Source: Escherichia coli | Lineage (GTDB): Bacteria; Pseudomonadota; Gammaproteobacteria; Enterobacterales; Enterobacteriaceae | Reading direction: 5' to 3' (one strand) | NCBI RefSeq assembly: GCF_029227855.1 | Contig: NZ_CP074356.1 | Length of the DNA stretch: 64,000 nt | Shown here: piece after piece, positions 33,332-36,300 of the stretch | How the letters are laid out: the number at the start of each line of letters is the position of its first letter | Position numbering within the stretch: the first letter of the stretch is position 1 | Program-made: the position numbers

Positions 33332-36300
33332 GGTTATGCGCTGATGCCTGATGCGGCGCGGGCGCGTCTTATCATACCCTGGAAGTCTGCGCCCGAATCG
33401 TAGGCCGCCTCCGCTATATTAACTGGCATTGGCAAATTACTCGTCACTACCTTTATTCATGTTTTTTTGGTCTTCATCCGGATAATGTTTTTTTAGATAT
33501 TCCAGGACGTTTTTATTGACCTTGTGTTGCGTATACACCCACCCTTTCCAGTAATCAGGCTGGTCCAGGTAAACTTCTGGCGGAATGGTGAAATCAGAAA
33601 GCGTTAACCATTCGGCTAATAGATCGGGGTTTCGTTTCTGGATTAACTGCAACAGCATAATCAGTGACATAGCTGAGGCAGGAGCCGTACTATCGCCACT
33701 TAAATATTTCCACACTGTTGACCGGTTCGAACGAAAAAGGATCGGTAGCAATGCCCGGTCCAGATTCATTTCATTAAAAATCTTCTCAAATTCATTCATT
33801 TAAATTTTCCTGCCTGGCGTAAACCTCTTAAAAATTGAGATTTATCAAAGAAACGCATTTTAGCACACATCAGGAACCGCTTCACGTTTAGTCCAGAAAC
33901 AGAATTTATTTCGCTTATCAAAACAAGTCTTTACTCTTTTTTACATTGAAAGAGCACAAAATGATTTTCGATTTTATTTATATAAGAAACATTTTTTGTT
34001 TCTTATTGGTGGTGTTTACGCTTACACCAGACAAAAATGCGCTTTACATCACACAAATGGCGGCGTAGATTTCGATTAAATTGCAACGCAGTTTATTTCT
34101 TAAAACAATATTATTTGTTTCTTATAGAAACATTAATGCGACTTATTTTGAACAAGAGAAAATGAATGAAAACTGTAAACGTAGCTTTACTGGCACTCAT
34201 AATTTCAGCAACATCCAGCCCTGTTGTTTTAGCTGGTGATACCATTGAAGCGGCGGCAACAGAGCTTTCAGCCATTAACTCTGGCATGTCGCAATCGGAG
34301 ATTGAGCAGAAGATTACCCGCTTTTTAGAACGCACAGACAACAGCCCCGCTGCGTATACCTATTTGACTGAACATCACTACATCCCTTCTGAAACACCTG
34401 ATACCACTCAGACTCCCACTGTCCAGACAGATCCTGACGCAGGACAAAAAACCGTTGCCGCTACAGGTGATGTACAGACAACCGCCCGTTATCAGAGCAT
34501 GATCAACGCCCGACAGTCTGCGGTAACTGATGCCCAGCAAACGCAAATTACAGAGCAACAGGCGCAGATCGTAGCCACACAAAAAAACGCTCGCCGCGAC
34601 TGGAGATACGCAAAATACTGCGCATTATCAGGAGATGATTAATGCCAGACTGGCGGCTCAAAATGAGGCTAATCAGCGCACTACCACGGAACAAGGGCAG
34701 AAAATGAATGCACTGACAACCGATGTGGCAGCACAACAGCAAAAAGAAAGGGCTCAATACGATAAACAAATGCAAAGTCTGGCGCAGAAGTCTGTCCAGG
34801 CACATGAGCAAATTGAAAGTCTGAGACAAGATTCCGCACAAACGCAGCAACAGTTAACCAACACGCAAAAACGGGTCGCAGATAACAGCCAACAAATTAA
34901 CACGCTCAATAACCATTTCGATTCTCTGAAAAACGAAGTTGAGGACAATCGTAAAGAAGCCAATGCGGGAACTGCATCAGCCATCGCTATCGCCTCACAA
35001 CCACAGGTGAAAACCGGTGACTTGATGATGGTGTCAGCGGGAGCGGGAACCTTCAACGGTGAATCTGCGGTGTCTGTAGGAACATCTTTTAATGCCGGAA
35101 CGCATACGGTACTTAAAGCAGGTATTTCTGCGGATACACAATCTGATTTCGGTGCGGGTGTCGGCGTGGGATATTCGTTCTAATTTTAACAGCAATTTCT
35201 TATTCGCAATTTTCCGTACATTATTTAAGGTTAACAATGATGAATAGCTCCATTAAATCGTTTTCCCTGCTGGCGGTTATATTACTGGCTGGCTGTAGTT
35301 CACCCACTTCCCGCATCGCAGATTGCCAGGCGCAGGGCGTCAGCCATGACACCTGTTATCTCGCAGAACAACAGCGTCAGACGGCTATTTTAAGTGCATC
35401 CGAGGCGCAGGCATTTAAAAATGCAGAAGCCGCACAACATGCCCAGGCGGCAAAGAAAGCCATTTATAAAGGATTTGGAATGACCTTTAGAATGAGCAGT
35501 AAAAACTTTGCTTATCTCAATGATTCATTATGTGCAATTGATGAAGACAATAAAGATGCCACTGTTTATCAGTCAGGTCTGTATAACGTCATTGTTTATC
35601 ATCACACAGGAAAAGTCGCCTTAATGAAGGAAGGTCAATTTGTGGGTTATTTAAAATGAAGGAGCAAAGGAAAATACCCCTGACGCATATTATGATTATC
35701 GGTGCGTTTATTTTTGCCTTCTTGCAAGTAGTATTATTAGCCTCCCTGGTTCACGCTGTGAATGTTAACAACGAAATCCAGGAAGGCTTATTTCAGTCGG
35801 GGCGCATTATGGTAGAAAGTTTGCAGCATATTCTTTCGGTGCAAACGGGGATTAACTGATTTTCACCCCGCCCGATGATGACAGCAGCCGGAGAGATTTT
35901 CGATAATCGGGCAGTCGGCGCTGTCATCACCAGGGCAGGCATTCGCCAGCGCCAACAGCTGGTTGCGCATGGATTGCAGTTCTTCGATATGTCGCTCGAT
36001 CTCCGCCACTTTCTCCAGGGTGCGACGTTTGACGTCGGCACTGTGACGCTGCGGATCGTTAAACAGATTCACCAGTTCGCCGCTCTCTTCCAGGTTAAAG
36101 CCCACCTGGCGCGCCTGGCGCAGTAAGGTCAGTTCGTTGAGATGCTGCTGCGTGTAGGTTCGATAACCATTTTCGCTGCGCATCGGCGGCGTCACCAGCC
36201 CCTTCTCTTCATAGAAGCGGATTGCTTTGCTGGTCAGGCCGGTAATTTTTGCTACATCGCTAATGTTCATCGTTCGCGCAACGCCTCCTGTGCTTTATTA

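Follow-up and report, generated by a model that had tools for sequence, protein, structure and literature searches.

Two small genes stand between an autotransporter gene and cueR in the chromosome of Escherichia coli, and their position raises the question of whether they serve the autotransporter or only travel with it. We studied them in a stretch of 64,000 nucleotides (nt) from contig NZ_CP074356.1, which is referred to as the window. An earlier note on this DNA had cautiously described them as coupled genes for a lipoprotein and a small membrane protein, of no assigned function, behind an autotransporter gene. Our results support this description, with the reservation that the coupling is itself a matter of interpretation. 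Together they make up the distal half of O-island 29 (OI-29) of E. coli O157:H7. They are thus already known open reading frames (ORFs) of a named island, one of which has been deleted before, and the family to which the lipoprotein belongs has no Pfam or NCBIfam model.

The first gene (z0638 in strain EDL933) encodes, as the earlier note had read, a lipoprotein of 140 amino acids (aa) with an LLAGC lipobox. The N-terminus is MMNSSIKSFSLLAVILLAG followed by CSS, the codon of Cys20 occupies positions 35294-35296, and the lipobox L-L-A-G-C conforms to the bacterial lipoprotein pattern [LVI][ASTVI][GAS]C. In an alignment of 20 homologues C20 is invariant and L17 and G19 are almost invariant. The residue at position +2 is Ser or Thr in nearly every aligned member, Val in one and Asp in none. 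Lipoproteins without Asp at +2 are sorted to the outer membrane by the Lol system. As the window protein has Ser at this position, it is predicted to reach the outer membrane. The lipobox is one of three conserved blocks in the alignment. The others are a Cys block, SR(M/I)A(D/E)C(Q/E)AQG(V/I)SxDTCYLAEQ(N/Q)RQ, in which C30 and C40 are nearly invariant (C-x9-C), and a C-terminal block, DExNxDATVYQxGLYNVIVY...GKVALM..GQFVGYxK.

The earlier note had proposed structure prediction as a check. The AlphaFold2 model of the lipoprotein shows a mean pLDDT of 73, with values of 85-91 over residues 75-140. It consists of a helix (residues 23-32), a turn and a second helix (37-64), which form the N-module, and then of eight short strands, which form the C-module. 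The hairpin of the N-module is probably stapled by a Cys30-Cys40 disulfide. A Foldseek comparison of the model with the PDB gave nothing significant (best E = 0.075). In comparisons with the model PliC, MliC/YdhA and Brucella PliC scored 6.3-6.4, the Neisseria protein ACP 6.3 and avidins ~5. The statement that neither protein has a recognisable motif also stands: Pfam, NCBIfam, PHROGs and PADLOC returned no above-threshold family for the lipoprotein or for the product of the second gene, and searches of PDB sequences with each protein as a single sequence gave no match. A profile of the 20 lipoprotein homologues, run against all PDB sequences (E ≤ 10), found only PspA and one unrelated protein.

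The two halves of the lipoprotein are separable modules and each is also found without the other. The N-module alone forms lipoproteins of ~65 aa in 22 species (Buttiauxella, Aeromonas, Pseudomonas and others), and the C-module alone occurs behind an ordinary signal peptide. Homologues are few: a word-indexed search gave 55, and an exhaustive profile search of 1.84 billion representative proteins gave 152 clusters at E ≤ 1e-3. Some of the matches to representative proteins (P0194, P0219 etc.) were large Cys-rich, BspA-LRR or other repeat proteins; these matches are driven by the repeats, and we did not count the proteins as relatives.

The lipoprotein gene begins directly after the autotransporter gene, as had been reported in the earlier note, with a gap of 53 nt. 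A terminator scan found no strong terminator between the two genes and nothing within the gap; its only result was a weak hairpin of the terminator type in the last part of the autotransporter gene, at the 3' end (35154-35178, nine pairs of which three are G-C). The product of the upstream gene carries a YadA_anchor domain (PF03895; E = 2.6e-12 and 47.1 bits against a cut-off of 22.7 in the window, E = 7.2e-12 in the intact allele) and is therefore a trimeric (type Vc) autotransporter (TAA). Its N-terminus is MKTVNVALLALIISATSSPVVLA followed by GD, so that both hallmarks of type Vc, a signal peptide and a C-terminal YadA-like anchor, are present. The intact protein of 338 aa comprises a Sec signal peptide, a coiled-coil region and the anchor, and Pfam (E ≤ 0.1) detects neither a YadA head or stalk nor any DNA-binding domain in it. 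This class of short, headless TAA is common in pathogenic E. coli (O157:H7, O55:H7, O145, UTI89, RS218 and avian pathogenic E. coli O1). In the window a run of seven As in place of six shifts the frame, so that two ORFs (34166-34642 and 34635-35183) stand in place of one. Six As and the intact 338-aa gene were found in every one of the 1,029 complete E. coli genomes covering this stretch, and seven As in none. The additional A stems either from a mutation private to this genome or from an error in sequencing the homopolymer. A homologue search seeded with the TAA anchor returned fragments only.

In order to follow up the co-occurrence analysis suggested in the earlier note, we took one genome per species, which gave 51 loci, called the ORFs and searched them with hidden Markov models (HMMs) built from the proteins of the island. 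A YadA-anchor or TAA-like gene was located within 3.5 kb of the two-module homologue in 16 of 26 species genomes, compared to 0 of 22 for homologues with the N-module only (Fisher's exact p = 4e-6). The link between the C-module and TAA genes is statistically clear, and for the lipoprotein the suggested check thus gave a positive answer. For 14 of the 16 linked homologues the YadA-anchor gene is the immediate upstream neighbour in the same orientation, at a median distance of 68 nt. In locus L025 it lies 1.9 kb upstream, and in L014 the neighbour is a downstream repeat-rich ORF that is not matched by the anchor HMM and may represent a disrupted TAA or else a secreted protein without an anchor. 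The linked loci come from at least eight genera (Escherichia, Pseudocitrobacter, Enterobacter, Phytobacter, Rahnella, Yersinia, Ewingella and Pantoea). Their TAA passengers vary in length between 221 and 728 aa, and the anchors stay closely similar. Relatives that consist of the C-module behind an ordinary signal peptide likewise come after TAA genes (L063, and L064 with 4e-28 for the anchor HMM), and one C-module relative adjoins an Ail/Lom outer-membrane protein in a prophage remnant. We clustered all neighbouring ORFs against each other, and across genera only three kinds recurred: the TAA (19 loci), the helix-turn-helix (HTH) gene of the z0640 type (12 loci) and the ORF of the 67-aa protein encoded by the second gene (six loci).

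The insertion sites differ between lineages. In Escherichia the genes lie between ybbJ and cueR, whereas the Pseudocitrobacter-type loci L005 and L009, and also L064, have them between fetA and qmcA. They are found beside thiM in Enterobacter asburiae (L002) and in serine-recombinase islands in L003 and L063. Shared ancestry is a caveat on the linkage signal, but the variety of sites argues for repeated co-transfer of the genes. We compared the lipoprotein with mobile elements by tblastn: there was no match among 50,697 phage records, and the few matches among 72,556 plasmid records fell on mis-typed chromosomes or chromid-like replicons, none of them with a TAA.

The earlier note had tied its claim to conservation outside this strain and to expression. 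Among 5,426 complete E. coli genomes, 1,410 (~26%) contain the full length of an 801-nt probe over both genes, with 95-100% identity. In the remaining genomes, K-12 included, the probe matched at its cueR end only. Beyond E. coli the genes occur in other Escherichia and in Pseudocitrobacter, and the lipoprotein family persists to ~40% identity across more distant Enterobacterales. The ratio of non-synonymous to synonymous substitution rates (dN/dS) of the lipoprotein gene is 0.02-0.04 in comparisons with other Escherichia; E. whittamii, for example, differs by 24.5 synonymous and 4.5 non-synonymous changes. The gene is under strong purifying selection. In EDL933 grown in Dulbecco's modified Eagle's medium (DMEM) the published values in reads per kilobase per million (RPKM) are 20.4 for z0638, 96.1 for the TAA gene and 43.5 for z0640 (PMC5826968, Table S3). 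All three drop to zero RPKM in bacteria attached to HeLa cells, and quantitative reverse-transcription PCR gave decreases of 10.6-, 8.5- and 5.2-fold, respectively (PMC5826968). As the genes are conserved beyond this strain and the lipoprotein gene is transcribed in O157:H7, the claim withstands both of these checks.

The published gene numbers were assigned by mapping the primers of PMC5826968 onto the window. z0638 is the lipoprotein gene and z0640 is the 120-aa HTH ORF. The primers used for deleting, cloning and tagging z0639, published as gmrA, map to the YadA-anchor gene and not to the HTH gene z0640: the cloning primer encodes MKTVNVAL and the tagging primer ends in ...GVGYSF. Hence the published transcriptional activator GmrA is encoded by the autotransporter gene, and direct binding of DNA by an outer-membrane autotransporter is hard to reconcile with its architecture. 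The same mapping placed one homology arm of the z0638 deletion at 35660-35697, within the ORF of the 67-aa protein. The z0638 mutant has therefore also lost the start codon of the second gene and is effectively a double knockout.

For the second gene we found, in agreement with the earlier note, an ORF of 67 codons with one hydrophobic stretch, an ATGA overlap with the lipoprotein gene and exactly 3 nt (35860-35862) between its stop and that of cueR. The best 19-residue window covers residues 14-32 (mean Kyte-Doolittle value 2.65), and the net charge is +2 on its N-terminal side and -2 on its C-terminal side. The protein is thus predicted to be oriented N-in/C-out, with a transmembrane helix at about residues 12-32 and a periplasmic tail of ~34 aa. 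The 4-nt overlap is also present in L001, L003, L005, L006, L008, L009, L010 and L059. Because it is kept in every locus with the small ORF, and because there is no good Shine-Dalgarno sequence, we infer that the two genes are translationally coupled. Both genes are annotated by RefSeq/PGAP in many genomes, where they are labelled 'hypothetical protein' (both) or 'lipoprotein'. The Sakai table has no feature at the position of the 67-aa ORF, and the ORF is not on the published three-gene list of OI-29 for EDL933.

Homologues of the 67-aa protein in Pseudocitrobacter and in other Escherichia loci have 64-68 aa, 34-42% identity and 14 invariant residues. Its 42 database relatives belong to Escherichia and Shigella wherever the source names an organism, so that the protein is restricted to Escherichia, Shigella and Pseudocitrobacter. 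The dN/dS of the ORF is 0.19-0.32, and 0.59 against L003, the most divergent comparison. Conserved residues cluster where the helix ends and along the tail (L31, H33, A34, N38, E40, Q47, S48, Q57 and L60), which points to a periplasmic role. Alternatively, signal peptidase I might cut at the conserved LVHA and thereby free a peptide of 33 aa. Other branches carry different small ORFs at this position. Rahnella, Serratia and an uncultured Enterobacterales genome have an unrelated ORF of 70-81 aa starting with MKKHHTDQFKHL (L015, L019, L020, L024 and L026), which overlaps the lipoprotein stop by 4 nt in L015, L019, L020 and L026, begins 6 nt after it in the Serratia locus L024, has no hydrophobic helix or signal peptide and gave no family match. 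Pantoea has an ORF of 69 aa with a C-terminal helix. Since the 67-aa protein occurs in one branch only and other branches carry other small ORFs, we regard it as a lineage-specific addition. We also considered a type I toxin-like peptide and rejected it, as we saw no sign of an antisense-RNA toxin locus, as the ORF forms a coupled pair with the lipoprotein gene and as conservation resides in the periplasmic tail.

How can these observations be combined? Because genes with the C-module directly follow TAA genes in many genera and at several sites, with varying passengers, we favour an accessory role for the lipoprotein, a reading that we consider plausible without being confident of it. The lipoprotein would be tethered to the outer membrane and act in the periplasm on the short, headless TAA. 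It would be exported by Sec, lipidated at Cys20 and, having Ser at +2, delivered by Lol to the inner leaflet of the outer membrane. In the periplasm the N-module would fold into its helical hairpin and the C-module into its small 8-stranded beta domain. These steps of export, lipidation, sorting and folding are derived from sequence rules and from the model. The lipoprotein may then dock on, stabilise or help to assemble the 12-stranded anchor or the nascent trimer at the outer membrane. The 67-aa protein would be made in step with it through the translational coupling and would probably insert N-in/C-out, exposing an amphipathic helix of ~34 residues to the periplasm. That it is a lineage-specific partner or modulator of the lipoprotein is the most tentative part of the scheme. 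An accessory role would be in keeping with the synteny, its breadth, the independent insertions, the C-module-only relatives behind TAA genes, the small set of neighbours shared across genera, the co-regulation, the lack of a strong terminator after the TAA gene, the purifying selection and the precedent of SadB and TpgA.

Several observations weigh against this role. In EDL933 the z0638 deletion left motility and the expression of fliC and motA unchanged, whereas deletion of the TAA gene altered them and caused a motility defect (PMC5826968). The TAA gene alone complemented the island deletion, and loss of the whole island left adherence to HeLa and Caco-2 cells unaffected (PMC5826968). The only reported phenotype of the TAA gene thus needs no lipoprotein. 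No TAA lies near ten of the 26 homologues with both modules (L004, L007 and L016-L018 are examples). In the window the frameshift disrupts the TAA gene, and the two genes behind it are intact. The 67-aa protein is limited to a single branch, and the coupled ORF of Rahnella and Serratia encodes a non-membrane protein. We also found no relationship in sequence or fold between the lipoprotein and SadB/YajI or TpgA. The deletion data weaken the case for an essential helper, but they only weaken the idea of a helper as such, because SadB and TpgA are also enhancers and not essential.

To our knowledge SadB and TpgA are the only two accessory proteins described for TAAs. SadB, the helper of SadA in Salmonella, is likewise a small lipoprotein of enterobacteria whose gene shares an operon with a TAA gene, and it too has an N-terminal helical part followed by a C-terminal all-beta domain (PMC3953254). 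Both families also have members that are not linked to TAAs (the paralogue YajI for SadB, the solo homologues for the lipoprotein). However, the SadB gene lies upstream of its TAA gene and the lipoprotein gene downstream, and SadB was shown in the inner membrane whereas the lipoprotein, with Ser at +2, is predicted in the outer membrane. SadB consists of a trimeric coiled coil of nine heptads and a MATH/Ig-like sandwich, the lipoprotein of a short hairpin, probably disulfide-stapled, and an 8-stranded mini-domain. When we compared the lipoprotein with SadB/YajI (PDB 4C47 and 2JWY), the operon linkage with a TAA was shared, but there was no sequence homology and neither the coiled coil nor the MATH/Ig sandwich was present. 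The tpgA gene reportedly lies downstream of ataA. TpgA of Acinetobacter sp. Tol 5 is close to the proposed role, as it is encoded in a TAA operon, is periplasmic at the outer membrane and aids the display of AtaA without being essential (bioRxiv 10.64898/2026.01.22.700529). It has BamE/SmpA-like and OmpA-like peptidoglycan-binding domains, neither of which was detected in the lipoprotein (Pfam and NCBIfam, E ≤ 1).

The N-module shows a likeness of its own. TraV, the VirB7-like outer-membrane lipoprotein of F-type conjugation, shares with the lipoprotein the lipobox, two Cys about nine residues apart and a ...EQ... helix. The TraV profile TIGR02747 was matched below threshold by 16 of the 20 family members (best E = 4.3e-5). 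The window lipoprotein scored 19.5 bits against a cut-off of 44.75, with residues 7-66 aligned to positions 4-64 of the 145 in the profile. From these sub-threshold matches we conclude that the N-module resembles the lipobox and C-x9-C start of TraV and nothing more. An orthologue of TraV was rejected: no tra genes occur in the 60-odd chromosomal loci and only the first ~60 residues align. None of the places found by tblastn in the plasmid records is annotated as TraV.

Other explanations do without the TAA. The lipoprotein might be an independent envelope-protection factor that, like the lysozyme inhibitors MliC, PliC and ACP, inhibits or binds in the periplasm an enzyme of the host or of a competitor, and that travels with the adhesin only as co-cargo for host interaction. 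The predicted outer-membrane location is shared with MliC, there are many solo homologues of which one adjoins ecotin (L007), and the C-module relative next to the Ail/Lom protein would fit as well. Against this, Pfam gave no MliC match at E ≤ 1, and the inhibitory loop motifs that define MliC and PliC (SxSGAxY and YxxxTKG) were not seen in the alignment. The Foldseek comparison gave no significant hit either. An inhibitor would also leave the tight same-strand adjacency to TAA genes at independent sites unexplained, and we consider it improbable. That both genes are hitch-hiking cargo, with no function linked to the adhesin or none at present, and are kept because the island is young, strikes us as very improbable. 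It would agree with the deletions of z0638 or of the island, which gave no phenotype beyond that assigned to the TAA gene (PMC5826968), and with the accessory nature of an island carried by ~26% of E. coli. The low dN/dS of the lipoprotein gene, with its excess of synonymous differences from E. whittamii, and the persistence of the family across Enterobacterales speak against such cargo, as does the small ORF, which keeps frame, length and 14 invariant residues at 34-42% identity.

The pair could also be an envelope-spanning sensor or tether, in which the outer-membrane lipoprotein touches the periplasmic helix of the 67-aa protein, comparable to RcsF-IgaA or to spanins, and reports or modulates the state of the envelope independently of the adhesin. 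The predicted topologies are opposite, with an outer-membrane lipoprotein facing a bitopic protein that exposes a periplasmic helix of ~34 aa. The conserved ATGA coupling would imply a fixed stoichiometry, and in L068 a membrane protein of 45 aa is encoded just upstream of the C-module lipoprotein. However, the small protein is absent from most of the family, where unrelated and in some cases non-membrane small ORFs take its place, and its cytoplasmic part of ~11 residues is too short for signalling. PADLOC gave no match. We see little chance that the pair works in this way. A spanin pair (Rz/Rz1) in particular was rejected: the phage records gave no match, the sizes are the reverse of those of spanins, and the sole PHROGs match, a sub-threshold one to an Rz-like spanin (E = 0.029), covers the signal peptide and lipobox region.

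If the accessory reading is right, the lipoprotein might found, through its C-module, a third family of TAA partners, unrelated to SadB and TpgA and specialised for short headless TAAs. We put this forward as possible but rather doubtful, together with its corollary that GmrA is an outer-membrane TAA, that it affects flagella indirectly through the envelope, since it is located in the outer membrane, and that z0640 is the true DNA-binding protein of the island. A survey of TAA neighbourhoods from 2026 recovered TpgA and SadB as the only helpers and flagged DUF2827 glycosyltransferase candidates (bioRxiv 10.64898/2026.01.22.700529). It required a YadA head, which this class of TAA does not have, and would therefore have missed the lipoprotein family. 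Our literature search found no paper on the lipoprotein, on the small ORF or on their linkage with TAAs. TAAs are major adhesins and serum-resistance factors. A third accessory family would widen the picture of type Vc biogenesis and would give a function to two 'hypothetical' genes present in about a quarter of E. coli genomes. The family would be new and unrelated to the others and its job of a known kind; should the helper reading be wrong, the protein is an ordinary conserved accessory lipoprotein. The literature on OI-29 needs to be re-read in either case, as gmrA is the autotransporter gene and the z0638 deletion also hit the unannotated 67-aa gene.

The coordinates of all features are collected in Table 1. 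OI-29 is a mobile cassette of four genes, namely the divergent XRE-type HTH gene and the genes of the TAA, the lipoprotein and the 67-aa protein. In EDL933 it was described as a segment of 2,643 bp with the genes z0638, z0639 and z0640 (Yang et al. 2018, PMC5826968). The corresponding genes of O157:H7 Sakai are ECs0546 (lipoprotein), ECs0548 (adhesin) and ECs0549 (divergent gene), the second of which was listed as 'Saa-like protein' of S-loop 43 (Ogura et al. 2007). For the z0640 protein an XRE/Cro-type HTH fold is predicted with confidence, and it is probably the local regulator of the cassette. Deletion of z0640 gave no motility phenotype (PMC5826968).

Table 1. Positions of the features in the window
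Feature	Position	Strand	Basis or remark
z0640-type (ECs0549) 120-aa XRE/Cro-like helix-turn-helix gene	33437-33799	-	divergent from adhesin operon
Short headless TAA gene (z0639, 'gmrA', ECs0548 'Saa-like')	34166-35183	+	signal peptide, coiled-coil stalk, YadA anchor
A7 homopolymer breaking the TAA frame	34581-34587	+	found only in the window; alignment to CP028192
Lipoprotein gene (z0638, ECs0546, WP_001339231)	35237-35659	+	140-aa ORF with lipobox
Signal peptide with lipobox LLAG/C, lipidated residue Cys20, Ser at +2	35237-35296	+	read from sequence
N-module, residues 21-66	35297-35434	+	AlphaFold2 model, conserved columns, sub-threshold TraV matches
C-module, residues 75-140, compact 8-stranded beta domain	35459-35656	+	tracks with TAA genes
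67-aa small-protein gene (WP_000664216)	35656-35859	+	ORF, hydropathy, homologues, dN/dS
ATGA start/stop overlap	35656-35659	+	ATG 35656-35658, lipoprotein TGA 35657-35659
cueR	35863-36270	-	convergent with the small ORF; right island edge

The right edge of the island agrees with the published OI-29 deletion, one arm of which begins at the cueR stop according to the primer mapping. With 3 nt between the convergent stops, transcription of cueR must end inside the cassette and transcription of the cassette must run antisense into cueR. A weak terminator-like hairpin was noticed on the minus strand at 35660-35681, inside the 5' end of the 67-aa ORF. At the left edge (33290-33410) we observed palindromic repeats of the REP/BIME type, and the part of a probe that covers them matched at a median of 6 and a maximum of 19 places per E. 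coli genome.

As the cassette is inserted between fetA and qmcA in other lineages and between ybbJ and cueR in Escherichia, the region fetAB-qmcA-ybbJ-cueR appears to be a recurrent insertion hot spot. The fetA-qmcA insertion elsewhere in Enterobacteriaceae is either the same cassette or a version with the TAA and the C-module (L005, L009 and L064).

A different arrangement was observed in Chimaeribacter (L068, 3092-4195), where the C-module gene follows the gene of a secreted Ala/Gln/Pro-rich protein in which a His-rich tail replaces the YadA anchor. The 45-aa membrane protein of this locus is encoded between the two. Pantoea sp. IMH (L014, 6944-9407) probably has the same arrangement, with a His-tailed secreted protein before the C-module gene. 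Such His-tailed secreted proteins may be a second type of partner for the C-module.

Past cueR the window continues with a type I secretion locus on the minus strand (36267-43117 and beyond), which comprises an HlyD adaptor, an ABC permease/ATPase and a giant repeat adhesin of the BapA/SiiE type. In a near-identical genome RefSeq labels the giant adhesin 'siiEA' with an internal stop. The locus corresponds to ECs0540-0544 of Sakai and to the frameshifted RTX-like locus noted in enteroaggregative E. coli 042.

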